Below are positions 2,687-33,098 of a stretch of DNA of 64,000 bases, one piece after another (position 1 is the stretch's first letter; each line of letters starts with the position of its first letter). Source of the DNA: Gemmatimonadota bacterium (GTDB taxonomy: Bacteria; Latescibacterota; UBA2968; UBA8231); NCBI GenBank assembly GCA_038153405.1, contig JAYOYH010000010.1, positions 1 to 64,000 on the forward strand, in the 5' to 3' direction. A model generated the notes under the pieces. The model worked only from the letters and a program-made list of their open reading frames with translations. It was not told where the DNA came from and searched no databases. Position numbers and translations under genes: made by a program.

Positions 2687-5320
2687 CTACTCAACGCCGG
2701 CGTATACGGCGACAAAACTGCGCGTCCGCGTCTCGACCTCGTCGAATTCAAACTGGCGGCGGGCCAGTTCGAACCCTATAGTCGTCGTCAACTTGTATCC
2801 CTGGTACTCCGATAAATTGCTCAACTGCACCGTATTTACCAACCCGTGGAAGCTGTCTTCGCCTCCCGGCGGCGTGGGATCGAGCAGTTGGCTGAATATT
2901 TCGTATTCGATGCCCCACTCCACCGAACTGCTGCGCAAAAAGGGAAATCGCACGAGAAACGAGAAAAACTGGTCCCACTCTCGGCGTTTGGGCACGGAGC
3001 GCCTTACGTCGGCCTGATGGCGGTACTCGCTCTTCCAGCGCGGAACCCACGTTGTATTTAGCCAGTTCAGCTTGTATTCGACCTTGTCGATCAGCCCTAA
3101 AAAATAGGCGCGTTCGCGCTGGTCGCGCAGGGCCAACTCTATGGCATCATCCTGCTGCAGGTACAGTTGCCACTTCAGTTTATTTTCCCACCGCAACCCG
3201 CGAATGCGCGTGAAGTCAAAGCCCACCCAGGTGGTGTTGATCCACGTATCCTGCGCGGCAAGTGGGTCGGTTATAAGGCGCATGCCACCGCGCGTGTTGG
3301 CCGGCTGCTGCCACTGGAAAAGATCGTCCGCTATTGTGTCTTTAACTCGTCTGATATCCTGAAAGAGCACCCACTGCCCCCAGCCGAACAGATCGACGTT
3401 GGCCGCGCCGATTAGATACGTCGCCCGATTTTTGCGCTTCGCCGAGATCTGCCGCAGGCGCTGCTGTCCGACGGTAACTCGGATATCGGGGCTAAGGTGA
3501 AATCCGCCATAGGCATTATAGCCCTTGAAATCGGGCTTGTAGGGCAGGTCGGCCTGTTCGTCGTTTTCGAATCGATCGATCCAACCGTTGTGGTTCATAT
3601 CCACGCCGTAGAGAAATTCGGGACGATCGGCGTGAAAGCGCAGGAACGGCTCTTCGTAATCGGGTATGAGGTTGGGGCTGTCTTCGTTGTCGTTCTGATT
3701 GAAGTCCGAAATAAAGTCGTTGTTTTCATCCCAGCCCGGAAAGACTTCGCGGTCACCGGCCTCCCACCCCTTGCGGCGCCAATCGGGCTGGCGATCTTGG
3801 TCATCGTTGTCTTCGACGAATTCAAAGCGCAGAAAGTCGTTATCGAAATCGACCTGGCCGTTATTCCGGTCGACTACATACATATGCGTGGCGTAGCGCG
3901 GGCTAGTATCGAAAGCCTCGCCAAAAAAGAAGAACGGATACCGCGTGCGGGAAACGTTGAGCAACCAGGCCAGCGCCTCGTCTTCAGCCACCGCGTGGCG
4001 GTCGAGGCCGGGATTGGGATATTGGCGAAACTGGCGGTTCACGTTGACTTCCATATAGCTGCGGAAACCGGCCAGATCGTCGACCTCCAGCGTGAAACCA
4101 GCAATTTGGTTGGCGGTGGGAATACCGTAGTCAAAAGCGATGACGCGCTGGTTAGAATTGTCTTTTACATTGCCTGCAGCGCGTGCCAGAGGCAAGAAGG
4201 TTCCCTGCTGATCGGAGGCAATTTCAATGCGGTAGTCGTTGGCGATAACCAATTCGATACTCACGCGTTCGATAGCGGCGATATCGGGGCCTATATAGGT
4301 GCGATCGTTGAAGTCGTAGCTAATGTCAATAATCTCGCTGCCATCGGCTGCCAAGTAGCCGCGGCGCTGAAAGCCACCTTCGATCAAGGGGCGAAAACCG
4401 ATTTCGCTCCCCCGCGTCTGCTTGCCGTCCAGGTCGTAGATGAGAATATCGGTGGCAAAGAGCGCGCCGCCGCCCGTGCCGTCTTCTGGAGAATCGTCGC
4501 TTATGCGCACGTCGATGCGCGAAATGCTGGCAAAGTTCTGCGGTCCGGTGAGCGCGCCTTTGAACATATCGCCGCCAAACGATTCGAGCTGCGTGTAGGC
4601 CTGGTGCGCGTTGACAAAAGTGCCGCCGACCTTGGCAAAGTCGCCCATCTGCACTTCTATGCGACCGCCTATCAAATTGGTATTGTCCGTTTGTTGGCTC
4701 GGATTGGCGCCCGAGATGCCGGGCTCGCTTATGCGCGACATAATCAGCGTACCGGCGTATTTATCGGACATAAAGTCCCACTGCAGGCCATCGAAGAGTG
4801 GCTTGGAAAACGTCATCGGCGTAAGCGACGAGCGAATCTGGCTGCCGATGGTGATGGCATAGTGATACTGGCCCTTGTGGTCGGAAGCGATGACGAGATT
4901 GGAAAACCACGAGCTAAAGCGCCCAGACTTTTCGACCATCGAACCAAAGGGCTGGGGATTTTCCTGACGCCAATCGTAGATGAGCCAGCCGTGCATCAGG
5001 TAATTGCCGTATATGTCGTAGAAGTAGTCGCCTTCAAGCGCCGTCGAAACATAGCGCTGGTATAGCTGGTTGGCGTAGTTGGTATACTCGCGTGAATTCC
5101 ACCCGTACTCGGCGTAGAGTTCCTGCGGAACGTACCACTTGCGCACGACCGGATCGAGCGCATCAAAGAGAATGCCCGGACCCGTGGGCTCAAACGAGAC
5201 TTTGCCCCCGCGCTTCACCGTGCCGAGTCGAGCGCCGTATTCCTGTGCACTGGCACCTGCGCTACACAAAACGGCCAGCAGCAGCACGGCTCTGATTACC
5301 CTTTCTAACATATTCACCAA
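2687..5320 (-). CDS. Large exported protein, putative outer-membrane beta-barrel with Asp-rich Ca-binding loops (copy 1 of 3)
   Basis: Signal peptide ASA-Q; family motifs KWYVPQEL, LTPMTFSKP, DDSPEDG, DNDDQDRQPDW, PDYEEPFLRF, DMNHNGWIDRFEND; amphipathic strands at the C-terminus ending FVAVYAGVE. Start could be 5320, 5317 or 5311. Confidence 0.7.
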   Translation of the reverse strand: MVNMLERVIRAVLLLAVLCSAGASAQEYGARLGTVKRGGKVSFEPTGPGILFDALDPVVRKWYVPQELYAEYGWNSREYTNYANQLYQRYVSTALEGDYFYDIYGNYLMHGWLIYDWRQENPQPFGSMVEKSGRFSSWFSNLVIASDHKGQYHYAITIGSQIRSSLTPMTFSKPLFDGLQWDFMSDKYAGTLIMSRISEPGISGANPSQQTDNTNLIGGRIEVQMGDFAKVGGTFVNAHQAYTQLESFGGDMFKGALTGPQNFASISRIDVRISDDSPEDGTGGGALFATDILIYDLDGKQTRGSEIGFRPLIEGGFQRRGYLAADGSEIIDISYDFNDRTYIGPDIAAIERVSIELVIANDYRIEIASDQQGTFLPLARAAGNVKDNSNQRVIAFDYGIPTANQIAGFTLEVDDLAGFRSYMEVNVNRQFRQYPNPGLDRHAVAEDEALAWLLNVSRTRYPFFFFGEAFDTSPRYATHMYVVDRNNGQVDFDNDFLRFEFVEDNDDQDRQPDWRRKGWEAGDREVFPGWDENNDFISDFNQNDNEDSPNLIPDYEEPFLRFHADRPEFLYGVDMNHNGWIDRFENDEQADLPYKPDFKGYNAYGGFHLSPDIRVTVGQQRLRQISAKRKNRATYLIGAANVDLFGWGQWVLFQDIRRVKDTIADDLFQWQQPANTRGGMRLITDPLAAQDTWINTTWVGFDFTRIRGLRWENKLKWQLYLQQDDAIELALRDQRERAYFLGLIDKVEYKLNWLNTTWVPRWKSEYRHQADVRRSVPKRREWDQFFSFLVRFPFLRSSSVEWGIEYEIFSQLLDPTPPGGEDSFHGLVNTVQLSNLSEYQGYKLTTTIGFELARRQFEFDEVETRTRSFVAVYAGVE

Positions 5321-5334: not shown

Positions 5335-7260
5335 TTAGTAGGCTATGGCTATAGTGCCCGTATGAACTTCTTCAAAGGCGTCGGCGCGTATGCGCATGAC
5401 CCAGATATAGGAACCGGGCACTAGGCCCTTGCCATCTGCCCCACGGCCATCCCAGCGCTTTTCGACCGGACCGATGCGGTGTTCATCGGAAAATACCGTA
5501 TGCACTTTGCGCCCGGCCAAATCGTAGATCTCCAGCACTACGGGGGTTGGCAGCGTTAGCTGCAGCAAGTTGAAAAAAATGTCGAGCTCGTCGTTGACGC
5601 CGTCGCCGTTGGGCGTCAACACTCGAGTGGAAAAGAGGATTTGGCCGACGAGCTTTCCAACCTGCGCTTGGGGAATGGCCACCGCTAAGCTAGCCAATTC
5701 GTCGCTGTCCTCAGGGCCAAACGATACGGCGTTGCCCGCTTCGAGGATCTGCGGCACGGACGGCCAGCGACTGTTGTAGGCGCGCCCAGAAAAGGTCGAG
5801 CCAAAGCGAAAAATAGGCAGATCAAATGTGAACTCCAGCAGATCGCCGTCGCCGTCGATCAGGGGAAAGGACAGCACGAAGCGATCCTCGTTATTGGCCA
5901 CGACGTCGAAGTCGACCGCTTCGCCATTGATGCGCAGGTTGCGAATGGCCGACACCTCGATATTGGTGTCGACTTCCAACCGATCGTAACCGCGCACGCT
6001 GCCGTTGGCCTTGAGCAGCACGGCGTAGTTAAAGCTAGCCGCTTTTTCGGCTTCGGCCAGACGCGGAAACACCTCCGCGCGCAGGGTGTCGGCGATGGGA
6101 GGCTGCAGGTAGTCAAACTGCAGGCGGGCCACCTGCCGCGCATCGAATATGCGGCCGTTGAAGTCGAAGCGGAACTGCACGTAGCGCCGCGGACCCGGTG
6201 CCGTAATTAGCTGGCCATTCTCGGCCGACTTCCACGGGCTCCAATGCTCTTCGTCCTCTATGAGCGGCCCTCTGTTGAGGCGATCCAGCTGGTAGTAGTC
6301 CGCTCCGGGTACTTCAATTACAAAGGGATCGCCGAACTCGCCCACCCCCTTGCGCTGGTAGACGACGGGGGTGTCGTCTAGACCGGTGCGAACTCGCACG
6401 CCGAGTGCGGAAAAGGCTGCCTCACCGACGGATTCCTCGATCCAGCGCACCCGACCAATCGTCGCCCGATCGCCCAGATCGATTAGATCGGTGAGGTAGC
6501 GCGCTTCGCTCAAATAACCCGTGCCATAGACCTCGACTTCATCGATCTCAAACGGCGTCGAAGACAGCGAGCGCACCTTGATAAGGCGCACGTACTGCGG
6601 TGGAACGTTCACGTCTACAATGGGCGACTCATTTTTTTCGTCGCGTGCGACCAATTCGTCGGGGGCATTCTGCGCCGTATTGGTCTGGCGATCGTTAATC
6701 CACACCTCGTATCCGCGCATAAAGTAGTCCTGGAACGGTGCGTTGGGCGTGGGCACCACCGTATTGCGCGGATAGAAGCGCACGCGGTGAATGCCCACCG
6801 GCATGCCAAAATCGAGGATAACTAAAATTCCGCGCGCATTGGCCTCTGGATTGGACAGCGTTGGCTTGCGCTCAAAGGCCACGTTGTGATCGCCGTTGAC
6901 CGTTCCCTCTAGCTGCAAGCGGCGCACCGCGCTGGAAATCAGCAACGAGTTGGGTGCCGTAATGCTGCCGCGGTCCAGCAAGACGCGCGATGCGATATTT
7001 TCCTCCAGTTCAAAAAAGCGCGGGCTAATCCATCCGGGGCGCTGCAGAAAGTCGATAGCATCTTCGGGCGTGTTAGTCGTATCCACTCGGCCGATAGCCG
7101 AGTCGCGCACGAGAATCTCCGGATCGATGCTACCGCCCCCTTCGCTCCAAGGCCGACCGCCCAAGCCAAGAGTAAACGTGCGCACGGACTGGCCGCTGGC
7201 CGGCGATATGCCCAGCGCCGCGCCGACGAGGATCAGTAGGATAAGCCGCTGCCATCGCAT
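5335..7260 (-). CDS. Secreted discoidin/galactose-binding-like protein with FlgD-Ig/CHU_C-like C-terminal domain
   Basis: Signal peptide; LDFGMPVGIHRVRFYPR, EIDEVEVYGTGY, WSPW...PGPRRYVQFR; C-terminus TPNGDGVND...IYDLAGR...WDGRG...PGSY...IAIAY. Confidence 0.75.
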   Translation of the reverse strand: MRWQRLILLILVGAALGISPASGQSVRTFTLGLGGRPWSEGGGSIDPEILVRDSAIGRVDTTNTPEDAIDFLQRPGWISPRFFELEENIASRVLLDRGSITAPNSLLISSAVRRLQLEGTVNGDHNVAFERKPTLSNPEANARGILVILDFGMPVGIHRVRFYPRNTVVPTPNAPFQDYFMRGYEVWINDRQTNTAQNAPDELVARDEKNESPIVDVNVPPQYVRLIKVRSLSSTPFEIDEVEVYGTGYLSEARYLTDLIDLGDRATIGRVRWIEESVGEAAFSALGVRVRTGLDDTPVVYQRKGVGEFGDPFVIEVPGADYYQLDRLNRGPLIEDEEHWSPWKSAENGQLITAPGPRRYVQFRFDFNGRIFDARQVARLQFDYLQPPIADTLRAEVFPRLAEAEKAASFNYAVLLKANGSVRGYDRLEVDTNIEVSAIRNLRINGEAVDFDVVANNEDRFVLSFPLIDGDGDLLEFTFDLPIFRFGSTFSGRAYNSRWPSVPQILEAGNAVSFGPEDSDELASLAVAIPQAQVGKLVGQILFSTRVLTPNGDGVNDELDIFFNLLQLTLPTPVVLEIYDLAGRKVHTVFSDEHRIGPVEKRWDGRGADGKGLVPGSYIWVMRIRADAFEEVHTGTIAIAY

Positions 7261-7263: not shown

Positions 7264-9933
7264 TCAGAGACCCGCGTTAACCGTGAGAAAGAACAGGCTG
7301 GAGCGCTCGTCGTCGCCGCCGTCGAGATGGCGGTTGCCCAAACGAACCCCTGTGCGCAGGACGAGTTGGTATCCCATATAGCCGACCTTATTGGTAAGCT
7401 GTCCAACCCACGTCCAGCTGCGCGAGCTTTCGCGCACCGCTTCGCTCTGGCCGTCGAGCAGGCTAAGCCGGCTCAGCTCGATGCCCACCTGCAGCTGCGT
7501 GTTGAACAGCTGGCGACCGTAGCGCGGAAAGTAGGCCACCCCTACCGACTCGGCCATGAGGGGCTGCGTCCAGATGAGGAACAGCGTTTGCTCGGCTATC
7601 GTCGTTTCTTCGAGCAGCGCACTAAAGGGTCGATCGCGGCGCACCTCACTCTTAACGCGCGGCTCTAAGACGGCCAGGCCGATGGGAATGCTCCACTCGC
7701 CCTTGTTTATTAGTCCGAGAAAACCGCTGCGATAGCGCCCCTCGCGCTCGCGCACCGATTCGGATTCATCGCGCTGCCATAGCCCTTCCCACTTAACGCG
7801 GTGCAAGAAGTGCGTACCATTCCACAACTCGTGCTCGAAGTCCAAGTAGAACGTATTCTGCCACGTATTGCGCAGCGGCAGCAGGTCGAATACCCTGCGC
7901 ATGCGCCCCAGCGCTCCGGCCGGCTGAGTCCACTGATTGATGTCGTCGGGAATGTCGTCGCGCACCACTTTGCCGAGTTCGAACAGGCGCAACAAACCCC
8001 AGCGATGGCGCCATGACCAAGCCCAGAAACCATACCAACTGCGCGTGCGCCCATCGCCGGAGAGACGCCGCATGTCCTGGCGACCTGCCAATAGCAACAT
8101 ATCGGGGCCAACGCGAGCGGATAGATAGGCGTTAAAACCGCGCAGATCGCGTTTGAAGGGATAGTCGGGCAGGTCGTCGTCCTCAAAGCGGTCAACCGTG
8201 CCGTTGTGATTCATATCAAAACCAAATAGGTACTCGGGCCGATCGGAGCGAAAGCGGAGAAACGGCTCGTCGTAGTCAGGCTGTAAATTGAGGTTTTGGT
8301 TGTGGTCAAATATGAAGTCGCCGTTCTCGTCGTAACCAGGCCAAACCGTCGCATTCCACGGCTGCAGCGGCCTTTCCCAGTCGGGCACGGCGTTGAAGTC
8401 ATCGTCGTCGTCGACAAACTCGTAGAGCTGAGGCACGCGGTCTTTATAGCGAATAGAACCGCTGGCCTCGGTCAACCAATAGTTTGTCGCATAGCTATCG
8501 TCAATAGAAAATCCCTCGGCGTAGAGCGCCCACGGATACCGCTTGTAGAGCGCTGTGCCATAGGCTGCCGACGCCTGCTGCACGGCGCGATAACCGCGGG
8601 GTATATTAGGGCTGGGATACTGCCCATAGCGCCGATTGACGACTAGCTCACCCATGGTCGAAAGCCCCTTCCAATCGCGCAAATCCCAGTTAAAACCAAT
8701 CAATTCGTTGGCGGTAGGCAGCGCGTAATCGAGGCGCAGCACCGTGCCGTTACTGCGATCCGTTACGTTGCCGCTCGCCCGATCAAAGGTGAGGAAAACG
8801 GGTTCGGGGTCGCTGCGGTCGCCGTCGGTTTGCAGATTCGATGCCATCTCTATTCGATAGTCGTTGGCCAGCGAAAGTTCGACGCGGGCGCGGCTGAGAT
8901 CGACGGAATTGATGCCCTCGTAGTCGAGCGACTCCAAGTCGTAGTGCAAAACGATGCGCTCTGCTCCGGAAGCCACTAGCGTGCTGCCCTCGGAGCGCCC
9001 CCCTTCGACAAAGGGCAAAAAGCCAATCTCGCTGCCGCGGATTTGGCTGCCGCTGGTGTCGGTCAAAACGATGTCGTACGAAAAGAGCGCCGGCCCGCCC
9101 GTTCCGTCGGCCGGCGAATCATCGCGCACGCTCACCCAGAGATCCTGTAGAGCCTGATTTTGATTGGTCGTTAGCACGCCGGCAAAGGGATTGCCGCTGG
9201 CAAAGTCTTCCTTGCTGCGCGCGTTGTGCGCGCTGACGTAGGTCAAGCCAAAGCGCAGGTTGTCCGTCGCATCCACATCGATGTGCCCTCCCATAAGATT
9301 GGTCACGTCGGTGCGCGAATCGCGATTGGGCTCACTAGGCCGCGACAGGATCATACTGGCCAGCAGACGATCGGTAGCGTAGTCCATGCGCATGCCGTTG
9401 AAGCGGGGCTTGTAGAAGGTGAGCGGCGTAAAGTTGGTGTATATCTGATCGCCGATCATCAGGCGATAGGTGCCGCGGCCGTCGCCGTCGCTAGCAATCA
9501 CCAAGCGGCTGAAAAAGCTGGAGTAGGTATCGCGCCGCTCGGGACTAGCGGGTCGCTTCATAATGACGCTTCCCTGCGATGCGGCCTGCGTCTGCGTCCA
9601 GCTGTAGACCAGCCACCCGCGACCGAGCGGCGACCCAAAGCTGTCGTACCACTCCGAGCCTTCCAGCAGCTGGGCGACATAGCGCCGATAGTCCCCTTCG
9701 GCATAGCGCGTCTCCTGCGCGTACCAGGGCTGCGCGTAGGTTTCGAAAAGATGGCGCGGAGCGTACCATTTGTGAATTTCGGGCAGGGCATATTCGACGC
9801 CAAAGCGCGGCGCGAACGCGGCGTCTACCCCCCCGCCCAGCGCCGGTCGTTCGGCCGGCAGGTACTGCGCATCGACCCGATGGCATAGCGCAACAAATGC
9901 GCAGAGAGCACCCACGTATAGCAACGACCGCAT
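7264..9933 (-). CDS. Large exported putative beta-barrel with Asp-rich loops (copy 2 of 3)
   Basis: Start reassigned to ATG 9933 (MRSLLYVGALCAF..., signal peptide VDA-Q), overlapping the upstream stop as TGATG. Motifs KWYAP, FTPLTFYKP, DDSPADG, PDYDEPFLRF, DMNHNGTVDRFEDD; ends FFLTVNAGL. Confidence 0.7.
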   Translation of the reverse strand: MRSLLYVGALCAFVALCHRVDAQYLPAERPALGGGVDAAFAPRFGVEYALPEIHKWYAPRHLFETYAQPWYAQETRYAEGDYRRYVAQLLEGSEWYDSFGSPLGRGWLVYSWTQTQAASQGSVIMKRPASPERRDTYSSFFSRLVIASDGDGRGTYRLMIGDQIYTNFTPLTFYKPRFNGMRMDYATDRLLASMILSRPSEPNRDSRTDVTNLMGGHIDVDATDNLRFGLTYVSAHNARSKEDFASGNPFAGVLTTNQNQALQDLWVSVRDDSPADGTGGPALFSYDIVLTDTSGSQIRGSEIGFLPFVEGGRSEGSTLVASGAERIVLHYDLESLDYEGINSVDLSRARVELSLANDYRIEMASNLQTDGDRSDPEPVFLTFDRASGNVTDRSNGTVLRLDYALPTANELIGFNWDLRDWKGLSTMGELVVNRRYGQYPSPNIPRGYRAVQQASAAYGTALYKRYPWALYAEGFSIDDSYATNYWLTEASGSIRYKDRVPQLYEFVDDDDDFNAVPDWERPLQPWNATVWPGYDENGDFIFDHNQNLNLQPDYDEPFLRFRSDRPEYLFGFDMNHNGTVDRFEDDDLPDYPFKRDLRGFNAYLSARVGPDMLLLAGRQDMRRLSGDGRTRSWYGFWAWSWRHRWGLLRLFELGKVVRDDIPDDINQWTQPAGALGRMRRVFDLLPLRNTWQNTFYLDFEHELWNGTHFLHRVKWEGLWQRDESESVREREGRYRSGFLGLINKGEWSIPIGLAVLEPRVKSEVRRDRPFSALLEETTIAEQTLFLIWTQPLMAESVGVAYFPRYGRQLFNTQLQVGIELSRLSLLDGQSEAVRESSRSWTWVGQLTNKVGYMGYQLVLRTGVRLGNRHLDGGDDERSSLFFLTVNAGL

Positions 9934-12431
9934 CAGTAGACCACGTAAACGGGCACCGCAGCGCCCAGTCCCTCGTCGGCGTCTGCGGCAAAGTGAACGC
10001 GCAGCACATAGACCCCCGGCACTACAACGCTTCCGCCTTCGTCGCGCCCGTCCCACTGCAGGGCGTGCTCACCGCTGGCATTTGCTCGCTCAAAAGACAG
10101 GTCGCGCACCTGGCGGCCAGCCAAATCGTAGACGCTGACGGCAAAGTGCACGGCACCCGTCAAACGGTATACGGTAAACGAAACCTGCGCCGCGTCGTTT
10201 ATGCCGTCTCCGTTGGGCGTAACTACTCCGGGTACAGCCCGCAGTCCCGATAGGAGAGGTGCTTTGAGCAGGTCGGTTACCACGACCATCGACTGACTCC
10301 CCGCTAGGCTGCTGGCATCCCCGTCGCTGGCCACCTGCACTGTGCCGGGCAGCCCGCTGTTGGCTAGATCTACGTAAAAGGTCGTGCTGTTTAGAAAAAC
10401 GCGGGTGCGAAAAGTAATCGCGTAGAGGGTAGCCCCGCGCCGGGCCACCTGCGGCAGCGCGAGCTCGAAGTAGCCTGGCCCCTCCGCGCTGAGCGACCAC
10501 GGTCCCGGCCACAGCTGCTGGCCAGCACCAAAGCGCAGCGACGCCTCGCTGCCGGAGCGAACGGATACCAACTGCAAGCTGGCCGAAGAACTGGCGCGCA
10601 CTTTGAGGCGATCAAATCCTGGATCGCCGCCGCCAAAGGTCGGCAGCACATACACCGTAAACTCCGCTTCGCTACCCGCCTCAATGCCGCGCACCGGCCA
10701 AACTTCGGCAAATAGCTGGTCGACCAGCGGCGCGCTAAAGCGAAGCTGCACGCTGCGCAGGGCCGTAGCGCGCAGCGGATCCACGCTGCGCAACCGCGCC
10801 TGTACTTGTACCATGCGGCGGGGATTGGGCGAGCGAAAGGCGTCGCCGCTGCCCGCATACAGCTCGCTCCAATTGCTCCACTTGGGGCCGATTAATTCGT
10901 TGACGACGACCGGTCCACGGTGTTCCTGATTGCGGATATTAACCCAGCGCTCTTCGCTAATCTCGCGTCCGTAGCGGTCGTAATAGTGCGCATCTTCTAT
11001 GATGTCATCGCCCGAACGAGTGCGCACTTCTAGCCGCGCACCGGGCGGAATATCGGCATCCCACTCCAAGCTGGAGAATATCTGCGCGCGCGCTAGCTTG
11101 ATCAGCGGCGACGTCATCACTACGTCCGACACGTAGCCCTCTCCATAGGCCTGCACTTCGCTCAGCGTCGCCTTTTCTGCAGTCGAACCAACCAACTCCA
11201 AGCGACGCAGCTCGATGTGCTGGACTTCCTGTGGGATAAACTGCTCTTCCAATTGCACAAACGAGTTGGGATTAAAGCGCTCGTCAAATTCCTTCCACAC
11301 CAATTCCCCCGACGGATCCAGCCCGCCGTCCGATATGCGAATCTGATAGGCTACCGGCGGATTTTCCGGACTGATTAACCGCACGCGATCCAACCAGTAT
11401 TTGGCACCTAGGTCTATTTCCAACTGGTTTTCGTTTTTGAGAGGATCGTAGACGCGCAGATCAAACGAGGACATGTGCAGCCCGTCGGTAAGCTGGCGGC
11501 GCAGGAGATTGCCAAAGAGCGTCTGGTCCTGGAACAGTTCCCGCTGCGTGAGCGCTACCACGTTGTCTCCCAGCTCAACCACCTCGACTTCAGCGAGGCG
11601 CGGCCGCTCGCGGCGGTAGTAGCGCACCGGTCCGCGATCCACCTCGGGCAATAGCGCATAGGTATCGGGCAATACGGCAATTTCACGCCCGGCAGCCGTC
11701 ACCCGAAAGTAGTCGATCGCCCCCCGATCCTCATCCCCGAGCGCATCGTACTCTTCCTTGCCCACCTCGGCGCCGCGCGCGTTATCGCTGTCGAGCGCAT
11801 CAATGCGCACAAACTGGGTAACGGCACCTTCAACTCCACTAGGAGCGGGTCGCAGCGGTGCCACATCAAAGGAAAACTCGCGCTGGTCTTTATTGCGGAA
11901 GTTCACCTGTCCTACGCGCAAAAACTGGCGCCGATTGTCGCTGCCAAAAGCCTGGCGTCCATCGGAAATCATAACGCGAAATTTGAGAAAGGGATCGCCC
12001 ATACCCTCTTCGACAAAGCGCACGACGATGCGCTTGGCAATGACCGTGCGCCCGAGGTCGACTTCGACGTACCAGCGCTCGACCTCGTCGGCGCTGTCGG
12101 GCTCCCAGTACGTGTTGATATCGCCGTCGATGACGTGAGCCGCGTCGACAACGTTGCTTCCCGCGGCACTCACGCCCCCATACAGCGTGTCCTCCTCGGC
12201 ATTGACGCGAAAAAATTGGTCGGCATTGCGCACGGCATTGGTCTCCGAGCGCAAATAGCGCGGTCGCACGGTGCCGGTGTCATCGATCTGGCGCACGCCT
12301 AGGGGCGACTCCCAAACCTGCCACTGGTCCGCTCCTTCGATGACTACGCGATTCGACTCCAACCGATAGCCTTCTTGTGCATGCACCCAGCTGGCCGCGC
12401 AGAGGGCGAGCAATAGCCAACGCGGCGCCAT
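9933..12431 (-). CDS. Secreted two-discoidin-domain protein with FlgD-Ig/CHU_C-like C-terminal domain
   Basis: Signal peptide VHA-Q; IDGDINTYWEP...VDLGRTV (F5/8 type C-like) and a second IDLGAKYWLDRVRL unit; C-terminus TPNGDGIND...WDGRD...VYVVY. Closest to 33160-36501. Confidence 0.75.
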   Translation of the reverse strand: MAPRWLLLALCAASWVHAQEGYRLESNRVVIEGADQWQVWESPLGVRQIDDTGTVRPRYLRSETNAVRNADQFFRVNAEEDTLYGGVSAAGSNVVDAAHVIDGDINTYWEPDSADEVERWYVEVDLGRTVIAKRIVVRFVEEGMGDPFLKFRVMISDGRQAFGSDNRRQFLRVGQVNFRNKDQREFSFDVAPLRPAPSGVEGAVTQFVRIDALDSDNARGAEVGKEEYDALGDEDRGAIDYFRVTAAGREIAVLPDTYALLPEVDRGPVRYYRRERPRLAEVEVVELGDNVVALTQRELFQDQTLFGNLLRRQLTDGLHMSSFDLRVYDPLKNENQLEIDLGAKYWLDRVRLISPENPPVAYQIRISDGGLDPSGELVWKEFDERFNPNSFVQLEEQFIPQEVQHIELRRLELVGSTAEKATLSEVQAYGEGYVSDVVMTSPLIKLARAQIFSSLEWDADIPPGARLEVRTRSGDDIIEDAHYYDRYGREISEERWVNIRNQEHRGPVVVNELIGPKWSNWSELYAGSGDAFRSPNPRRMVQVQARLRSVDPLRATALRSVQLRFSAPLVDQLFAEVWPVRGIEAGSEAEFTVYVLPTFGGGDPGFDRLKVRASSSASLQLVSVRSGSEASLRFGAGQQLWPGPWSLSAEGPGYFELALPQVARRGATLYAITFRTRVFLNSTTFYVDLANSGLPGTVQVASDGDASSLAGSQSMVVVTDLLKAPLLSGLRAVPGVVTPNGDGINDAAQVSFTVYRLTGAVHFAVSVYDLAGRQVRDLSFERANASGEHALQWDGRDEGGSVVVPGVYVLRVHFAADADEGLGAAVPVYVVY

Positions 12432-14305
12432 TAGTAGACGACTCCCAGGGTACCCTCGCGCTCGACCGGGCCACCATCAACGTCGATCGATAGCCTGTAC
12501 ACGTAGATGCCGGGCGCGGCGAGCAGCCCCGTGGCATCGCGGCCGTCCCAGCGATAGGACTGGTCGCCGTTTAGCTGGAAGCCGCCGTCTATACGCCGCA
12601 ACAAACGGCCGTCCAGCGCGTAGATATCGAGGTGCGAAGCGGCCGACTGCGTCAGTTTGAGCAGGGCATAGCGCAGTTCAAAAACATCGTTTATACCATC
12701 CCCGTTGGGCGAAAACACATTGACCTTTGCTCCTACCCCGTCCAGCAGCGGCAGGCGTCCTTCACTGCTGGCCAAGCGCACGATTAGACTGCCCCCGAGC
12801 GACAGTGGTTCGACGTCGCCTTCCTGCGCCGATTGGTGCACGGTGAGCAATTCGCCCTCTATCAGACGACGGTCACCGGCCTGCACATCAAAGCGCGTCG
12901 CATCGCGAAATACGGTCCCGCGCAGAACGACCTGTATAAACGTCCCATCCTGTAAAATCGATCGCCGTAGGCGGATCGTCGTGCCCTCTTCGGCATGGTA
13001 ATCAGCGGTGAACTCCACTTCGCGATCGTCGACTAACACCTTGTCTATCGCATCAATGCGCGCCGCTGTCTGTATGCGCAGACTTTGAAATCCCGTGTCG
13101 GCGTTGGGCAAGAGCGAACCGTCTGTACGCCAAATGCGCATGCGCGTCTGCAGCGATATGGTAAACTGAGTCTGCTGACCGGCTTCGACCACAAGCGGCG
13201 ATATTTCCGCTGCCAAGGCATCAGCAATGGGCGGGTTGAGGTACTCTATGACCAGGCGCTTTATCACTGTACCAGGTCCATTAATCTGCAGGCGAAACTG
13301 AATGTAGGGATGGTTGCTGGGCGAGCGCACCTGACCGTCTGTGACCGTCTCCCAAGGGGACCAATCGGGGTTGCGCAAAATAGGCCCCTGTTCAACGGAG
13401 TCGAGGCGAGTATACTGGGCCATGCTGACCCGCTCGCGGTCTCCACCAACCCCGGTATAGCGAAAGTAGTGCAGCGGTTCTCGGTCCGGCCCCGTGCGCG
13501 TCTGCACCGTCAGCGGCAGATCGGTGATGTCCCCTCCATCATAGCGCACCTTCCCCCACAGCGGACGCGGCCCTTCGGTGGCGAGGATGGGCACAGATAC
13601 ATACTCTCCGGCCACGCCGATTCCATCGCTATAGACCTCCAACTCGGCGATTTCCCACGGCTGATTTTCACGCACCTGCAGGCGTATGAAGCGCACGTTG
13701 CGACTCTCGAATATGCGCTCTACCACCGGTTGGCGATTGGGGTTTGAATTGAAGAAGTTGAACACCGATTCAAACGGCCGTTCGAGTAAGTTGCCCGTCT
13801 CGACTTCACCCTCGTCGCCCAACCCCCCATTGGTCGACAGGCTAAAAGAGCGCGGAAAGAGCGTCTTGTGCTCGGGATCCTGGCGCGGGTAGAGCCGTAT
13901 GCGATCGACGCGGAAGGTCGCTCCCAAATCGATGTAAAACGTCGAGGTGCGCTCGACGCCGTAGCGCGCGGCAAAATCGTCTGGATTAAACGCCGTTGAA
14001 TCCACCCCGTCGAACATCACCTCGGCACCGGCGATAAACGTCGCCACGCCTCCGCTGCCGCCCGGCACCAGCACATACCCTGCACGCTCGGGCGTAGCCG
14101 GCGCCAAGTTGCTGTTGGGCTGCACATCCCACGTCCAGATTGAATCGGCGCGAATGGCCAAAAAGCGCGCCTCGGATACGCCCTGGTTCCAGCGCGCAAT
14201 GCTGGCGCGCCAGCCCACGCCCAGCGAGTCGACAGCACGCACAGGCGCGACGGCGCCCCACAGGCAGCACAAACTGACCACACCCCAAACGAGTAATCGC
14301 GTCAT
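12431..14305 (-). CDS. Secreted discoidin-like protein with FlgD-Ig/CHU_C-like C-terminal domain
   Basis: Start reassigned to ATG 14305 (MTRLLVWGVVSL..., GAGG upstream, signal peptide). MFDGVDSTAF, IDLGATFRVDRIRLYPR, WEIAELEVY; SPNGDGIND...LGVVY. TAATG overlap with the next gene. Confidence 0.75.
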   Translation of the reverse strand: MTRLLVWGVVSLCCLWGAVAPVRAVDSLGVGWRASIARWNQGVSEARFLAIRADSIWTWDVQPNSNLAPATPERAGYVLVPGGSGGVATFIAGAEVMFDGVDSTAFNPDDFAARYGVERTSTFYIDLGATFRVDRIRLYPRQDPEHKTLFPRSFSLSTNGGLGDEGEVETGNLLERPFESVFNFFNSNPNRQPVVERIFESRNVRFIRLQVRENQPWEIAELEVYSDGIGVAGEYVSVPILATEGPRPLWGKVRYDGGDITDLPLTVQTRTGPDREPLHYFRYTGVGGDRERVSMAQYTRLDSVEQGPILRNPDWSPWETVTDGQVRSPSNHPYIQFRLQINGPGTVIKRLVIEYLNPPIADALAAEISPLVVEAGQQTQFTISLQTRMRIWRTDGSLLPNADTGFQSLRIQTAARIDAIDKVLVDDREVEFTADYHAEEGTTIRLRRSILQDGTFIQVVLRGTVFRDATRFDVQAGDRRLIEGELLTVHQSAQEGDVEPLSLGGSLIVRLASSEGRLPLLDGVGAKVNVFSPNGDGINDVFELRYALLKLTQSAASHLDIYALDGRLLRRIDGGFQLNGDQSYRWDGRDATGLLAAPGIYVYRLSIDVDGGPVEREGTLGVVY

Positions 14306-14514
14306 CGCCTCAATTGTCTTTGCTCGCGCCCCGTTGCCTAGCGCCAACCCCATGCTATTTGCCTTGTAAATGAACGAGTTAAATAAACGGCATAGGGCGA
14401 CATTTTCAAATAATTCCACCCGTTGAAAGCCATTCAAAAGACGCACTGACCTTCCGTTCGGTCATACAAATAAGCTCGCAAATCCAATTGTGGGGAACGG
14501 CCTTTTTTCTTAGT

Positions 14515-19443: not shown

Positions 19444-19464
19444 CGAATCGAGCCATCCATTTTT

Positions 19465-21129: not shown

Positions 21130-21132
21130 ATC

Positions 21133-22494
21133 ATGAAGTGCAGATTCATCCCTCTCTTCGCCCTGTGCATCGGCTGTGGCCAAGAGGTAGCCCAACCCCC
21201 GGAGTCCCCGCCCCTCTCTGCGCCGGAACCAGCCGTTGCCTTACCGACAGCCGATGAGCTCTTTGCGCAGGGCCGAGCGCTGCAGGCACGCGCCGATTTT
21301 AACGGGGCCGAGTCGCGCTATCGACAGGCGATGACAGCCGCACCCAATAACCCGCAGTATGCCTACTATCTCGGCACGGTGCTGCACGCGACAAGCCGCT
21401 ACGGCGAGGCGCGCAGCCTGTTTGAGCGGGCCATTGAGCTCAAAAGCGACTACGCCGCTCCGCGCATAGCCCTAGGCAAGCTGCTGTACGACGTCGATGG
21501 CCAAGCCGAAGCGGCCGGAGCACTGCTGCAACAGGCGCTGCAAATCGCCCCGCAGGCCGCCGAAGCCCGATACACGCTCGCCCTCATACACCTTCGCGAG
21601 GGACGGGCCGACGAAGCGATTGCTCTCTTTTCACAGCTAGTGCAAACCGATACGAGCAATGCGCAGGCGCGCGCGCAGCTGGGATTGGCCTACCTGCAGC
21701 GGGGCGATGTCGAACGCGCTCAGCTCGAACTGCAGCAAGCAGCCGATGCTCAGCCTTATTACAGCACGGCCTACCATGGCCTCGGTCAGACCTTTATTCG
21801 ACAGGGCAAAGCCGACATCGGCCAACGGCTGCTGCTGCGCGCACAGCAGCTGGAAGAAGAGGCCACTCAGCTCACGCCACACCTAAATGCCCTGCGCCAA
21901 AATCCCAACCAACCACAAGCCCATTACAACTTGGCGATCATGTATGCGCGCTTTAGCCGCCTGCGCTATGCTGCCCAGCACTTCGGCCAAACCATAGAGC
22001 TCGATAGCACCTTCGCCCCGGCCTATCAGGGATTGGGCAACCTGTATCAGCGTCTGGGCACGACACCCGAGGCCCGTGCCAGCTATGCCGGCAAAGCCCG
22101 CGCGCTCTATCTGCGCGCCCTGCAGATCGACCCTAAACTGGCCGATACGCACAACAATCTCGGCCTCCTTTTACACAGTGCGGGCGATGTACAGGCAGCC
22201 GTGCACCACTACGAGCAGGCGACCCAAATTGATCCGCAGGCGGGTTTTTATCAGGCCAATCTGAGCCGAGGGTATTACGACACAGAGCGCTATGAAGACG
22301 CCCTAGGCGCCGTGCGCCGCGCCCTGCAGATCGATCCAACGCTGGCCGGTGCGCGCGAAACGCTAGGCGACATTTTTGCGGCCGAGGAAAATTGGTCGGA
22401 GGCACTCGAAGCGTGGGAAGCCATCGAGCAGCTGGGCACATCCCCCCAGTTAGAGCAGAAAATCGCCCGGGCGCGCAGCCGGTTAGGCCGGTAA
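21133..22494 (+). CDS. TPR-repeat lipoprotein
   Basis: Lipobox CIGC, Pro-rich linker, many TPR units (AHYNLA, THNNLG, ALQIDP). Confidence 0.85.
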   Translation: MKCRFIPLFALCIGCGQEVAQPPESPPLSAPEPAVALPTADELFAQGRALQARADFNGAESRYRQAMTAAPNNPQYAYYLGTVLHATSRYGEARSLFERAIELKSDYAAPRIALGKLLYDVDGQAEAAGALLQQALQIAPQAAEARYTLALIHLREGRADEAIALFSQLVQTDTSNAQARAQLGLAYLQRGDVERAQLELQQAADAQPYYSTAYHGLGQTFIRQGKADIGQRLLLRAQQLEEEATQLTPHLNALRQNPNQPQAHYNLAIMYARFSRLRYAAQHFGQTIELDSTFAPAYQGLGNLYQRLGTTPEARASYAGKARALYLRALQIDPKLADTHNNLGLLLHSAGDVQAAVHHYEQATQIDPQAGFYQANLSRGYYDTERYEDALGAVRRALQIDPTLAGARETLGDIFAAEENWSEALEAWEAIEQLGTSPQLEQKIARARSRLGR

Positions 22495-22501
22495 TCAGAC
22501 G

Positions 22502-27784: not shown

Positions 27785-29455
27785 TCAACGACTTTCCGCA
27801 TAGCGCGCAAGAGCCTCTTCATTCCACTGTGTCTGGTCTTTATAAGCCAAGCGCAGCGAGTCGAGATACGCGGCAAATAGCTTGGCCTCTTCTTGCTCTC
27901 GCAGCTTAACGCGGATGGGACGCTGCACCTGCTTAAAGGGAATAGCTTCCTTTAATATGGGTCGATTGAGGCGAAAAACGCTAAAGCGATCTTGGACTTC
28001 CAATGGTCCGTGCACAATACCTACGTCTTTTTCGTTGCTGTCGCCCAAAAACGTTCGGTACGGCGACTGATACAGCGATGCAATCTCTAACCGGCCGCTG
28101 TCGGAAAAGGCATGACCGCCCAACTCCTCCATACCCGGCCGCACGGAAAGGCGCCCGGCCAGCGACTCCAGCGATTCTCCGCCGCGGGCGAGCTCGACGA
28201 CCTCCTCCGCTTCGCTCCGAGTCTCGACCAGCACCTCGGTAAGGTGAATAACGCCGGGCAGCTTCTTATACGTGTCGAGATATTCCTCGTAATAGGCTTC
28301 GACGCGTTCGTCGGCAATTGCCACTTTATCTGCGATCTGATCTAGGCGCAGCTGATTAATCATAAGTGCTCTGCGGCGCTGCTGGCGGAACGCAACGATA
28401 TCGCTATCGGCACCTCGGTTTTGTCTGCGCGCCTCTAAGACCATGAGCGAATCGGGCAGAATCCACCGCTCGATTTCATCGAATACTGCAGTGCTATCGG
28501 GCGGTAGGGCCCCCTTTTTCAGGTCGCGAATTCCGCGCACGGCATCGCCGACCAAAATGCGCCCTCCCCGATAGCTAATTAATTCTCGCGCGGCCGATTC
28601 CGGAGTTAGCCCCTTGCGAAAAAGCCCGTTGAGCACATCGTGTACGCGCTCTCGCTCGTAGCGTATATCGCGCAATGTGGCGAGCGAATCGACGACGACT
28701 TCACGTCGCTCTGCCCATTTAACTTTGCTCATCCTATTGGCAATATTGTCGCGAACGGCCGCAAAGCCTTTGCGTCGCTTTTCTATAATCTTTACAATTT
28801 CCCAGCCGTCCTTCGTGCGAATAGGCTCGCTAAACTCGCCCTCTTCCAAGAAGAAGGTGGCCTCGCGCAGTGCAGGAACGACATCTCCCTGCCCAAAGAA
28901 CGCCCCCAAATTGCCGCCCGTTATGGCATCATCGGCACGCGAATATTCCTTGGCCACTTCGGAGAAAGGGCGGCCTTTGCGCAGCTCCTCAATAACGACG
29001 CGCGCATCTTCTTCGCTCTTTGAGAGAATGTGCGCCGGCCACACCTCCCAGCCTAAATCAAAGCTTTCATAGGCCTCGCGCAGTTCGGCCTCGTCTATGC
29101 GCAGCTGGCGATCCACCAATTCGATAGACACCTTCTGAGCCAAACGCTTGTTGGTTTCCACATCCAACACATGCTCCAATTCGGGCAGCACCCCGATGCC
29201 TTTTTTCGCCGCTTCCAAGAGCATAATTTCTCGGTCGACCAAGTCCTGCGCATACTGTCGCAATGCACTTACATCTTCTTTTTCGGCACGTAGATGGTTA
29301 GGTAAACTGGCGATAAAAGCCGATACTTCGCCGGCATCGATATCAACGTCTCCGACCTGAACAATACTGGAGTCCGGGACGCCTATCTTTTTTTGATCGG
29401 CACAGCCGCCCACAGCCAGCGCGGCAACCAAACCCGCCCATGCGTAACGAATCAT
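27785..29455 (-). CDS. Parvulin (PpiC-type) peptidyl-prolyl isomerase lipoprotein, two PPIase-like domains
   Basis: Lipobox VGGC; HIL...FSEVAKEYS...GGNLG...GEFSEPIRTKDGWEIVK; second degenerate domain GESLESLAGRLS. Confidence 0.8.
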   Translation of the reverse strand: MIRYAWAGLVAALAVGGCADQKKIGVPDSSIVQVGDVDIDAGEVSAFIASLPNHLRAEKEDVSALRQYAQDLVDREIMLLEAAKKGIGVLPELEHVLDVETNKRLAQKVSIELVDRQLRIDEAELREAYESFDLGWEVWPAHILSKSEEDARVVIEELRKGRPFSEVAKEYSRADDAITGGNLGAFFGQGDVVPALREATFFLEEGEFSEPIRTKDGWEIVKIIEKRRKGFAAVRDNIANRMSKVKWAERREVVVDSLATLRDIRYERERVHDVLNGLFRKGLTPESAARELISYRGGRILVGDAVRGIRDLKKGALPPDSTAVFDEIERWILPDSLMVLEARRQNRGADSDIVAFRQQRRRALMINQLRLDQIADKVAIADERVEAYYEEYLDTYKKLPGVIHLTEVLVETRSEAEEVVELARGGESLESLAGRLSVRPGMEELGGHAFSDSGRLEIASLYQSPYRTFLGDSNEKDVGIVHGPLEVQDRFSVFRLNRPILKEAIPFKQVQRPIRVKLREQEEAKLFAAYLDSLRLAYKDQTQWNEEALARYAESR

Positions 29456-29569: not shown

Positions 29570-30334
29570 TCAGGGGCTGGTATTGGCTACTCTGCGCCCG
29601 TCGGGATATACCCGCCCAATTTCGCGCTGAAAGAGCATCTCCACGTCGGTGGTCTCTACCGGGTCGCCTTTGTAGTCAAAGCGCACGACAATATCGTCAA
29701 TGTGCACCGTCAATAGGTCGACATCGCTAGCCAACGGTTCAAATACGATATAGCCCTCGCTCTCCTGGGCAGAAAAAATCTGCTCGTCTTGATACATCGT
29801 CCTGCGCAGAATGCCATCGCGTTCCTTCCAGACAATAAACGAATTGCCGGGTATGCCCGGCGAATCGCCTCCACTGCCGCCACCGGCGTAGCGGCGATAG
29901 TAAATGGATAGCTGGTCTCTGGTCAACGCATAGTATTTGCGGCCGTTTGACGTCGTGATATACACCTTCTGCGGATCGAGGTAGACCTTGGGATACTCGT
30001 AATTGGACACGTTGAGGCGAAAAATCGTCCACCGTTTGGGCGTATCCCCGGTGTCAAAATACTCCGAGTTGCCAAAGGTATACGGGTTGCGGGACTCGGC
30101 CCCGTCGTTGGAATAAGCGCTGAACTGGCGATTGAGTTCTTCGTCAGTCATCGGCCGCAGGGTGATGGCCAGGCGCGCCTGGTTATAGGTAACGCTGCCA
30201 TCGTCGGCAACTTCTTTGTCCTCGCCCTGCTCCGCTTCGCTCAGCGGCTGCAAATCATCTGCATAGTATCGATATGAACAACCCGTCCATCCGACGGCTG
30301 CGGCGAAGAAGAGCAGGTAACAGATTTTCAACAT
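29570..30334 (-). CDS. Lipoprotein of unknown function, paralog of 811-1551
   Basis: Lipobox WTGC, SD GGAG; PMTDEELNRQF, NPYTFGNS, VxRFDY/F and IGRV/IY shared with the paralog. Confidence 0.8.
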   Translation of the reverse strand: MLKICYLLFFAAAVGWTGCSYRYYADDLQPLSEAEQGEDKEVADDGSVTYNQARLAITLRPMTDEELNRQFSAYSNDGAESRNPYTFGNSEYFDTGDTPKRWTIFRLNVSNYEYPKVYLDPQKVYITTSNGRKYYALTRDQLSIYYRRYAGGGSGGDSPGIPGNSFIVWKERDGILRRTMYQDEQIFSAQESEGYIVFEPLASDVDLLTVHIDDIVVRFDYKGDPVETTDVEMLFQREIGRVYPDGRRVANTSP

Positions 30335-30344: not shown

Positions 30345-33098
30345 TTATTCCAGACCAGCGTAAACCGTTACGAACATCGCCGTCTCGGTTCGCGCTTTAT
30401 CAGCCGATGCACGGTCGATTCGCGCGATGCGGAAACCCGCCTGCGTCCACAAATTATACCCTTGGTAGTCGACGTTATTAGTGAACTGCAGCGCGTATAC
30501 GAGCTCGTTGCGATCGGAGCGCAGCAGGTTGTCCTCGAGTTGTTTTCTATACTGCTCGACGAACAAGTACTCAACGCCGGTCTGCAGCTCTGTGCGAGAG
30601 AGGATCGGCACGCGCGCAATCAGCGAAAATAGCTCGCGCAATTCCGTCGTCGCTACGCGGACCTGAGAATCTTCTCTCTCGGCGGGACGCTGGCGCTGAA
30701 ACTCGCTCTTCCAGCGCGGCTGGAACTTGACAATGCCGACGTCAAACGTGTAGTCCAGCTTGTTGAGTATGCCAAGGAACGACGCCGATTCGCGTATATC
30801 TTGCTGCTCGACCGGACGCTGATCGTAGTCGATCTGGTTTACTACCTCCCACTTTACGCGATTCTTGAACTGCAATCGATCGCTGGTATACTGATAGCCA
30901 AAGTAGAAGGTGTTGGCCCACGCATCGCGAAACGGCAGCGGATCGGTGTAGGGAACGAAAGCGCCACGCGACCCCTCGCGGACGATCCACTCAATCATAT
31001 CATCGCGAATATCGTCCTGCACGCGGCGCAGGTTATTAAAGACCTGCACGCGGCCCCGGCGCGAAAAATCGCGATCGTAGGTCAGCATTAGGTAATTGCT
31101 GACGTTGGAGCGATCGTCCGCCAGCTGGCGCTCGTCGAGGCGTCCAACGGTCAGACGGGCCTCGGGACCCAACTGCGTGCCGATATAGGCGTTGTAGCCG
31201 CGGCGATCCCGCTTGTAGAGATAGTCCGGCAAATTGTCGTTTTCAAAGCGATCGACAATGCCGTTGTTGTTCATATCCACACCGAAGAGAAATTCCGGCC
31301 GATCGGACGCATAGCGCAAGAAGGGCTCCTCGTAGTCGGGCATCGTATTTTCCCGGACATCCGAGTCGTTCTGGTTGAAGTCGTTTACAAAGTCGTTGTT
31401 CTCGTCGTAGCCCGGAAAGATACGCGTATCCTGCGAAAAGTTAGAGCGCAGCCAGTCGGGATTGCGGTCTTGGTCGTCATTGTCGTCGACGAACTCGTAT
31501 ACAAAGCGCGTATTGTCGTCGTAGTTGATATCGGCGGCGTCATTCTGCGTTCCCGCCAGGTACGCGCTGGTACTGTAGTCGGGATCTACGTTGTAGACTT
31601 CGCCAAAGGCGTAGTAGGGATAGGCGCGCTTGTAGACGTTGACGAACCAGGCGTCGGCCTGATTGTTGAAGGCGCGATGCTGGGTCACATCGCTTTCCGA
31701 ACGGCGCGGATAGCGGAAGTGCTGGCGGTTGCGGTCCCATTCGCCGGAGAGATAAAAACCGCCGACATCGCTCACGTCGATGGTCACGCCAAAAATCTCG
31801 TTGGCAACCGGCAGGCCGTAGTTGACCCGTACGAACTGCTGGTTCGAACCGTCCTTGACGTTGCCGTCTGCACGCACGGTGCGCTCGGGGATGCCTTCGG
31901 ACAGCAGCACCGGCTGGCCGTTTGAGTTGAGCTGGCGGTTTGAGGTGACGTCGATTCGATAATCATTGGCCAGCAGTAACTGGAACTCTATGCTCTTAAT
32001 CTGCTCGGGCTGTGGACCGAATGAGTTGCGATATTCCGGCCCCTCGAGGTCGTAGACCAGGACGATGACCTCGTTGCCGTCGGCAGAGAGAAAACCCTCG
32101 CGGCGGAAGCCGCCCTGCACAGACGGATGAAAGTCGAGGATGTTGTTATCGCCCAAGCGGCGGCGGTTGCTGATCTTGCCGCCGTCGATCGTCGTTATGA
32201 TCATCTCCTCCTGAAAGTAGGCCGCACCCGCCTGGCCGTCCTCCGGCGAGTCATCGCTCAGGCGCACCTCAATGCGCGAGACGTCGGCGTTGTTCTGCCC
32301 TTCCGTCAGGGTGCCACCAAAGGGATTGCCCTGAAAGGCCTGCCCCTTCGTTTGTGCGTTAAACGCGCTCAAATAGGTCGCACCGAGCTTTACAAAATCA
32401 CCGATCTGCACGGTTCCTCGCCCACCGACTAAGTTGGTGTCGTTGGAGCGCTCGCGCCCACCGCCGGTAGTGTTTCCCGTCGTGCTACCCGTGGCACCCG
32501 GTGAAGATGGACGAGAAGCGATAAACGTCGCCTCGTATTTATCCGTAGCCAAGTCCAACTGGATGCCTGCAAACGTCGGCTTGGAAAAGGTCATCGGCGT
32601 CAGCGTTGTGCGGATGCGATCGCCAATGGTCAGCGCGTAGGCATACTGGCCTTTCTGATCGGAGGCAATGACCACGCCGGAAAACCAGCTGGTGAAGTTC
32701 GTAGTCTTGAACAGGTTGCTACCGGCCGTCTGCGGAGCAGAAATACGCCAGTCGTAAATGAGCTGTCCGCGCGTTATGTAGTTGCCGTACAGATCATAGA
32801 AGTAGAACCCTTCCTGCGTCGTGTTCACATACCGTTCATACTTGCGACGGGCGTAGTTGGTGTAGTCCTGCTGACGCCACTGGTACTCGTTGAAGAGCTC
32901 CTGCGGCACATACCACTTCTTCACCGCTGGATCCAACGCGTCAAACAACACACCCGAACCGTTCGGCTCATAGAATAGCTCGCCCCCGCGCCGGACGCCC
33001 AAACGCGAGCCAAAGTCTTCTTGTGCGAGCGCCGCATTGGCTTCTACTAACAGAACAGCAGCTGCTACAAACAGAAAAATACGTTTAGCGTTGTTCAC
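30345..33098 (-). CDS. Large exported putative beta-barrel with Asp-rich loops (copy 3 of 3)
   Basis: GTG start with SD GGAGGG; signal peptide ALA-Q; LFDALDP.VKKWYVPQEL, LTPMTFSKP, DDSPEDG, DDNDDQDRNPDW, DMNNNGIVDRFEND; ends MFVTVYAGLE. Confidence 0.7.
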   Translation of the reverse strand: MNNAKRIFLFVAAAVLLVEANAALAQEDFGSRLGVRRGGELFYEPNGSGVLFDALDPAVKKWYVPQELFNEYQWRQQDYTNYARRKYERYVNTTQEGFYFYDLYGNYITRGQLIYDWRISAPQTAGSNLFKTTNFTSWFSGVVIASDQKGQYAYALTIGDRIRTTLTPMTFSKPTFAGIQLDLATDKYEATFIASRPSSPGATGSTTGNTTGGGRERSNDTNLVGGRGTVQIGDFVKLGATYLSAFNAQTKGQAFQGNPFGGTLTEGQNNADVSRIEVRLSDDSPEDGQAGAAYFQEEMIITTIDGGKISNRRRLGDNNILDFHPSVQGGFRREGFLSADGNEVIVLVYDLEGPEYRNSFGPQPEQIKSIEFQLLLANDYRIDVTSNRQLNSNGQPVLLSEGIPERTVRADGNVKDGSNQQFVRVNYGLPVANEIFGVTIDVSDVGGFYLSGEWDRNRQHFRYPRRSESDVTQHRAFNNQADAWFVNVYKRAYPYYAFGEVYNVDPDYSTSAYLAGTQNDAADINYDDNTRFVYEFVDDNDDQDRNPDWLRSNFSQDTRIFPGYDENNDFVNDFNQNDSDVRENTMPDYEEPFLRYASDRPEFLFGVDMNNNGIVDRFENDNLPDYLYKRDRRGYNAYIGTQLGPEARLTVGRLDERQLADDRSNVSNYLMLTYDRDFSRRGRVQVFNNLRRVQDDIRDDMIEWIVREGSRGAFVPYTDPLPFRDAWANTFYFGYQYTSDRLQFKNRVKWEVVNQIDYDQRPVEQQDIRESASFLGILNKLDYTFDVGIVKFQPRWKSEFQRQRPAEREDSQVRVATTELRELFSLIARVPILSRTELQTGVEYLFVEQYRKQLEDNLLRSDRNELVYALQFTNNVDYQGYNLWTQAGFRIARIDRASADKARTETAMFVTVYAGLE

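Follow-up and report, generated by a model that had tools for sequence, protein, structure and literature searches.

We describe here a family of large, predicted outer-membrane barrels, represented three times in a 64,000-nucleotide stretch of DNA from a Gemmatimonadota bacterium (GTDB phylum Latescibacterota; contig JAYOYH010000010.1 of assembly GCA_038153405.1, positions 1 to 64,000; hereafter the 'window'). The family is real and undescribed, being without a Pfam, NCBIfam or PDB assignment, and no description of it was found in the literature searched (mostly open-access main texts, including the available part of PMC11285876). We speculate, with about even confidence, that its members are import barrels energised by ExbB/ExbD, which in the clade represented by the window are paired with lectin-like 'lids' exported through type IX secretion (T9SS).

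The three paralogs in the window, all on the minus strand, are B1 (2687..5320; 877 amino acids, with a signal peptide of ~25 residues judged by eye), B2 (7264..9933; 889 amino acids) and B3 (30345..33098; 917 amino acids). Pairwise BLASTP identities are 36.8, 43.5 and 37.2% over ~900 columns (E < 1e-168), and none of the three has a match in Pfam or NCBIfam at E 0.01. A preliminary description of this DNA had listed motifs common to all three, and each of the nine patterns indeed matches once per protein; it had also remarked on the lack of the usual terminal aromatic, and the last residue is aromatic in just 35 of 350 members, with Phe eight residues from the end in 95% and Gly two from the end in 97%. 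Its term 'triplicated' was too narrow, as these paralogs are three of 23 copies (one truncated by a contig end) in the genome of the window, which is 93% complete and is referred to below as G000, with C-numbers for its contigs.

With one paralog as query, 7,996 candidates were scored and 955 of them proved to be matches; where a source is named, it is Candidatus Latescibacterota or a Gemmatimonadota-labelled metagenome-assembled genome. A 22-row profile gave 1,279 matches among 50%-identity representatives at E 0.001. Within the phylum the barrels occur in 95 of 151 genomes, including 63/63 sampled from the family of the window's genome, and were not found in three other families, of which 30, 19 and 2 genomes were searched; a Planctomycetota label is borne by two of the 80 foreign loci considered below. 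In this widespread and uncultured phylum few envelope families have expanded as far, many genomes holding tens of copies; one genome, G060, holds 62 matches, about 35 of them near full length. About a dozen of the copies in G060, which is a single contig, are split into at least two open frames, through either decay or long-read errors.

An AlphaFold2 model of mature B1, built from an alignment of 86 rows, confidently predicts a large barrel (predicted local distance difference test score, pLDDT, 86.5; predicted template modelling score 0.84), in which DSSP assigns 23 long strands across mature residues 117-850 and short strands at 73-106; the strand count is likely to be 24. The signal peptide, the sequential, antiparallel and amphipathic strands, and top fold matches that are all membrane barrels are as expected of an outer-membrane protein. 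Two inserts are predicted: one is all-beta, lies between strands 6 and 7 (mature residues 218-374; 4124..4594 on the minus strand), holds the DDSPxDG motif and is modelled as a beta-sandwich; the other, of 125 residues between strands 10 and 11 (448-572), is acidic and almost without regular structure, with a pLDDT of 64-94 over its conserved block. The core of this block spans amino acids 500-587 of B1 (3560..3823, minus strand), with counterparts at 8176-8421 in B2 and 31236-31496 in B3. If the last strand ends in the periplasm, the alternation of short turns and long loops suggests that both inserts would lie on the outer face of the membrane. Co-variation among 411 sequences (effective number 255) makes the sequence neighbour the top partner for 19 of the 23 strands and pairs the two strands that flank the acidic insert, 10 and 11, with a ladder score of 5.2, the joint highest; it does not resolve the seam of the barrel. 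Three compact relatives (P0260, P0267 and P0409; 744-769 amino acids) keep both inserts in shortened form, and would be useful minimal models.

Foldseek with the B1 model gives E values between 1e-7 and 1e-4 for MtrB, SlpA, LptD and FimD, with TM-scores of at most 0.25 by query length and identities of at most 12%, whilst VIA gives Z-scores of up to 14.2, at root-mean-square deviations (rmsd) of 5-17 Å, to many unrelated barrels. SprA/Sov, the FimD/PapC ushers, LptD and MtrB, all large single-chain outer-membrane barrels, are among these fold matches, but at no more than that similarity; because only generic barrels are retrieved and none stands out, the model points to a large barrel to which no solved structure is closely related. 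Profile searches of solved structures (with profiles of 3, 22 and 150 rows) produced nothing credible, the best E being 0.049; the ESM Atlas returned unnamed clusters only, with one DUF6029 row (0.89) that serves as a lead and nothing further; and the acidic block alone, as query, found no usable match. Neither PF00593 nor the Plug family matches any of the three window proteins, the 22 paralogs of the genome or 53 divergent members. The barrels show no homology to SprA_N or to PF11751 (PorP_SprF), and have neither the ~2,100 amino acids of SprA/Sov nor the ~300 of PorP/SprF. A relationship to SprA was rejected, since a profile comparison with the genome's own SprA reached a probability of 8.4%, confined to one 15-residue acidic loop. 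The proposal of a new outer-membrane barrel family, made in the preliminary description, is supported by the confident model and by the absence of any family match.

The same description placed each paralog directly downstream of a gene for a protein with a C-terminal domain (CTD), and this is borne out, the tail being a type-B-like T9SS CTD. G000 encodes two classes of such tails, 49 type-B-like and ~48 type-A-like or weaker matches; all 49 of the former belong to one paralogous family, with a common beta-rich module ahead of the tail (the 'cargo' family). Upstream of B1, B2 and B3, on the minus strand, lie 5335..7260 (641 amino acids; candidate cognate partner of B1), 9933..12431 (832 amino acids; an F5/8 type C domain; candidate cognate partner of B2) and 33160..36501 (1113 amino acids), with CHU_C/FlgD_ig tails that in the last case fall under the Pfam cut-offs; the intergenic distances are 14 bp for B1, a 1-bp overlap for B2, where the ATG overlaps the upstream stop, and 61 bp for B3. 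Further cargo genes in the window are 12431..14446 (minus strand; 671 amino acids; F5/8 type C match weak), 14580..17249 (plus strand, divergently transcribed; 889 amino acids) and 36559..39042 (minus strand; 827 amino acids). F5/8 type C matches occur in several type-B-like CTD proteins, and the 641-residue protein is modelled as almost all beta (pLDDT 91.9), its fold matching generic multi-domain beta proteins only (TM-score at most 0.2 by query length).

Across G000, 15 of the 23 barrels have a type-B-like gene within 300 bp upstream, whereas among the other genes of at least 600 amino acids the count is 3 of 481 (Fisher p 2e-20, in which tandem paralogs are not independent; three cargo family members are omitted from the counts). 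In the 80 best foreign loci, which are biased to the clade of the query and hold 126 barrels, 119 with an intact start, the gene upstream of those 119 is a cargo in 100 cases, another barrel in 11, a contig edge in 5, something else in 3 and a type-A protein in none. Barrel subtype tracks cargo subtype over 114 pairs (37/37 and 29/30 in the two largest barrel clusters), and among the 15 pairs of G000 the barrel-cargo rho, which is 0.50 when the last 260 residues are compared, is 0.20 with just the tail; co-duplication alone could explain this tracking. The cargo family is present in 10/10 barrel-bearing genomes and 0/15 others searched, with SprA in 24/25. Apparent barrel-cargo fusions in relatives (open frames of 1,200-1,630 amino acids) proved to be shadow frames over the upstream gene; the protein-database search was aimed at barrel forms of up to 1,535 amino acids.

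These neighbourhoods also suit the explanation closest to what the preliminary description had in mind, that the barrels are oversized SprF/PorP analogues, each a dedicated shuttle or anchor that would receive from SprA the type-B CTD protein encoded upstream, display it and have no role in transport. The gene order is that of the T9SS loci in which a type B CTD gene precedes porP/sprF, such as SprB-SprF and PG1035-PorP (in the available text of PMC12618676 and PMC9143113), with a like pairing of subtypes; the upstream cargo is never type-A, cargo and barrel families co-occur, and PorP_SprF was not found in 6/6 genomes of the window's own family, the search of G000 itself being without a positive control. 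The barrels are, however, of ~850-1,000 amino acids, about three times the 273 positions of the PorP_SprF model, which they do not match, and they have expanded without cargo as well. Moreover, in the core loci of G000 (C7), G003 and G015, a separate PorV/PorP-like barrel of 300-350 amino acids stands between cargo and large barrel, and as it directly follows the cargo, the SprF position is taken by another protein; a relative of this small barrel in G035 (a 300-residue neighbour gene product) passes the PorP_SprF cut-off. We consider the shuttle or anchor role unlikely.

The cargo link in this clade is strong without being obligatory. G003, which is 99% complete, has a single cargo for 17 barrel matches in ten loci examined; G060 has two cargos against its 62 matches, G006 and G015 have one each, and the dispersed loci of G060 consist of a lone barrel without type-B cargo in 14/14 examined. 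In a FastTree phylogeny of 49 barrels (first 70 columns left out; midpoint root) all 22 proteins of the KWYxP type, B1, B2 and B3 included, fall in one clade with support of 0.986, such that this N-terminal extension marks the cargo-linked clade, the one that has expanded with cargo; as exceptions, the barrel on C19 has the motif without cargo, and some core barrels without the motif follow a cargo. Cargo-linked and cargo-less clades offer a natural comparison for locating a docking site.

The acidic block is the most conserved region of the barrels (its entropy averages 1.61 bits, compared with 2.61 in strands 11-23), is 30% Asp plus Asn, and contains several nearly invariant loops in which alternating Asp/Asn residues precede a Gly, with an acidic residue further downstream. 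Loops of this DxDxDG type are known to bind calcium. The label 'Ca-binding-like' given to the block in the preliminary description therefore holds for the motif, from which calcium binding itself is only suggested; the further proposal, that calcium-stabilised loops dock the cargo, is unsupported as the main job of the block, which the 15 listed long barrels of G003 and 17/17 aligned barrels of G060, most without type-B cargo nearby, retain intact. Being fully kept in cargo-less copies, the block is unlikely to exist for docking, and on its conservation pattern a structural role seems to fit better.

A precedent for metal-held inserts is provided by SlpA of Deinococcus radiodurans (PDB 8ae1, 7zgx; PF21620), a very large barrel whose lumen contains acidic insertions that putatively bind metal, and for which a scaffold role has been proposed (available text of PMC9388160). 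By analogy, the barrels described here might be membrane scaffolds, in which metal-stabilised inserts block the pore and CTD proteins are held as a surface coat. Weak local similarity in sequence points this way: SlpA_C of Pfam matches 1/22 genome paralogs and 11/53 divergent members, each time at strands 8-10 (best E 2e-7, all below the 35-bit cut-off). So do the second place of SlpA in Foldseek and its alignment in VIA, the longest obtained (422 residues, rmsd 6.8 Å, Z 10.7). On the other hand, the TM-score to SlpA is ~0.2, and SlpA has 28-30 strands, an SLH domain, a coiled coil and one or two copies per genome, according to the same text, whereas no SLH or coiled-coil domain was detected in the barrel proteins; a scaffold would also leave unexplained the motor and TonB-like protein described below, and the tens of diverged, dispersed copies. 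We regard it as highly improbable.

Core loci that combine barrels with a ~1,090-residue TPR protein and ExbB occur in G000 (C7 and C34), G003, G006 and G060, with ExbD-like genes seen at C7 and C34; at the G015 core locus the long TPR protein lies at the edge of the examined stretch. DUF4159 proteins encoded near barrels have a His-bearing transmembrane helix, a linker that is basic and contains Pro, and a globular end, a layout that matches the three-part one of TonB/TolA-like transducers, which the available text of PMC12204202 describes for vWA, not DUF4159, proteins. Eleven such genes lie in eight of the ten G003 barrel loci, and others at C7 of G000 and in G006 (those with a TonB/TolA-like helix and linker being L112-L122 of G003, L011:1973-3154 and C85:8437-9795 of G000); in the literature searched, DUF4159 turned up only in a Pfam database article. 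On this layout, the DUF4159 proteins are candidates for a new class of force transducer, multiplied beside the G003 barrels. Amongst the neighbours of cargo-less copies, picked by hand, are sulfatase, PhyH, Gfo/Idh/MocA, enolase-type and acetyl xylan esterase genes.

We propose a speculative model in which substrates, probably glycans or their breakdown products, would be imported through plugged 'gates' opened by a proton-driven ExbB/ExbD motor. The aromatic N-terminal region (KWYxP, YxNY, YxRYV; 5036..5245 in B1, minus strand, modelled with low confidence) may fill the lumen as a plug, and structural alignments that start at model residues 16-36 set these over the luminal helix of VDAC and over the plug ends of TonB-dependent transporters; the acidic insert may be a calcium-stabilised structural element that helps to shut the pore from outside. 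The motor would act via two proteins of the core loci, the long TPR protein and the TonB-like one with DUF4159, and might be shared by dispersed barrel copies, as TonB is among TonB-dependent transporters. CTD proteins, in turn, would exit through SprA on a small PorV/PorP-like shuttle, after which the lectin-like protein could settle on its cognate large barrel as a surface 'lid'. Many diverged and dispersed barrels but few motor loci, together with a TonB-like protein and catabolic genes nearby, appear to fit an energised importer best.

The barrels probably work, then, in the manner of a TonB/SusCD-type importer without belonging to that class. Like TonB-dependent transporters and SusC-SusD (BT1762-1763, PDB 5t3r), they are large outer-membrane barrels in many diverged, dispersed copies, with ExbB/ExbD and a TonB-like protein at core loci and a cognate surface protein encoded next door; unlike them, they lack PF00593 and Plug matches, have 23-24 predicted strands rather than 22, and bear two large inserts, whilst the partner is a T9SS-tailed, all-beta protein and not a SusD lipoprotein, and the putative transducer ends in DUF4159. 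We advance more tentatively, and below an even chance, that energised import across the outer membrane has here been solved a second time, without homology, by a 24-strand barrel gated by its own N-terminal plug and a calcium-held insert, a DUF4159 transducer on ExbB/ExbD and, in one clade, T9SS-exported lectin lids. If so, a whole uncultured phylum would take up its nutrients mainly by this system, which would include the first T9SS cargo to act as an importer lid; nutrient import, if correct, would in itself mean a new force-transducer domain and a new class of gated transporter in the outer membrane, with type IX secretion linked to uptake.

Several observations weigh against import. As the N-terminal 70 residues of the B1 model mostly have a pLDDT below 50, the plug position is weakly supported; Arg-Glu pairs that co-vary between the acidic insert and strand positions facing the lumen (541/740 and 536/780) follow the split between clades, and so are not independent evidence. 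Ordinary TonB-dependent barrels exist elsewhere in the genome, where the PF00593 models give seven matches at ~6 genes, and no TonB box was recognised by eye in the barrels. DUF4159 lies beside only 1/80 loci of this clade and 0/14 dispersed G060 loci, and the copy on C34 has no His; DUF6785 membrane genes are within 10 kb of a barrel in just 4 of 21 cases in G000; and the catabolic neighbours, chosen by hand, come without a background control.

A further alternative is that the barrels serve as export pores of a separate, ExbBD-powered secretion route, for which the substrates would be type-B-like proteins or CBM9-like proteins with a WGxIK-type tail. CBM9/WGxIK genes are the most constant companion in the foreign loci (40/80; in G000, 8 of 11 have a barrel no more than 10 kb away) and a peptidyl-prolyl isomerase (PPIase) is often adjacent (28/80); GldM was not found in G000, in a search without a positive control; and the barrels are in the size class of the FimD usher, which has the top VIA score (Z 14.2, rmsd 8.4 Å, 323 residues aligned). 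That score is nevertheless tied with those of unrelated barrels, the genome carries SprA, PorV and PorU, and dozens of stand-alone copies suit substrate-specific receptors better, so that we find export improbable and retain energised import as our preferred explanation. SprA is encoded elsewhere in the genome, the SprA/PorU/PorV genes lying at C29:30661-37059 and C91:167-5065.

The remaining genes of the window's two barrel operons are on the minus strand. A PorV-related small barrel truncated by the contig end (1..777; E 1e-15 to the genome's PorV), a candidate CTD shuttle, closes the first operon. The lipoprotein-like protein at 811..1551 belongs to a family with 8/8 genome members within 7 kb of a barrel gene, and a second copy (29570..30334) is directly downstream of B3; next to it is a parvulin-type PPIase with a lipoprotein-like N-terminus (27785..29455). 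The CBM9-like protein at 1555..2496, a frequent cassette member, has a WGxIK-type tail, as does a second protein of its family (39174..40166). Tails of this TAVE..SWGxIK type occur on secreted proteins at 1555-2496, 39174-40166 and 45564-46046 of the window, with 14 such open reading frames genome-wide, many CBM9-like; they are possibly a third sorting signal.

Between the two operons, 17290-27768 encodes one GT-C/TPR, two FG-GAP/ASPIC, two TPR and one GDSL/TPR protein, and similar genes flank barrels at C3, C4, C6 and C7. Leucine-rich-repeat, lipoprotein-like genes directly follow three B1-type barrels elsewhere (L001:2905-4461, L002:10130-11977 and L003:5215-6630). Small shares of the region were recovered as contigs in two estuary metatranscriptome runs of one study, which are uninformative on expression level or habitat. 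Finally, C17:1-14946 holds an apparent TonB-dependent receptor (by eye), CTD-like and PorV genes, and then a trio of large membrane genes that also follows barrel loci at C7 and C60, as if the two types of barrel were interchangeable.

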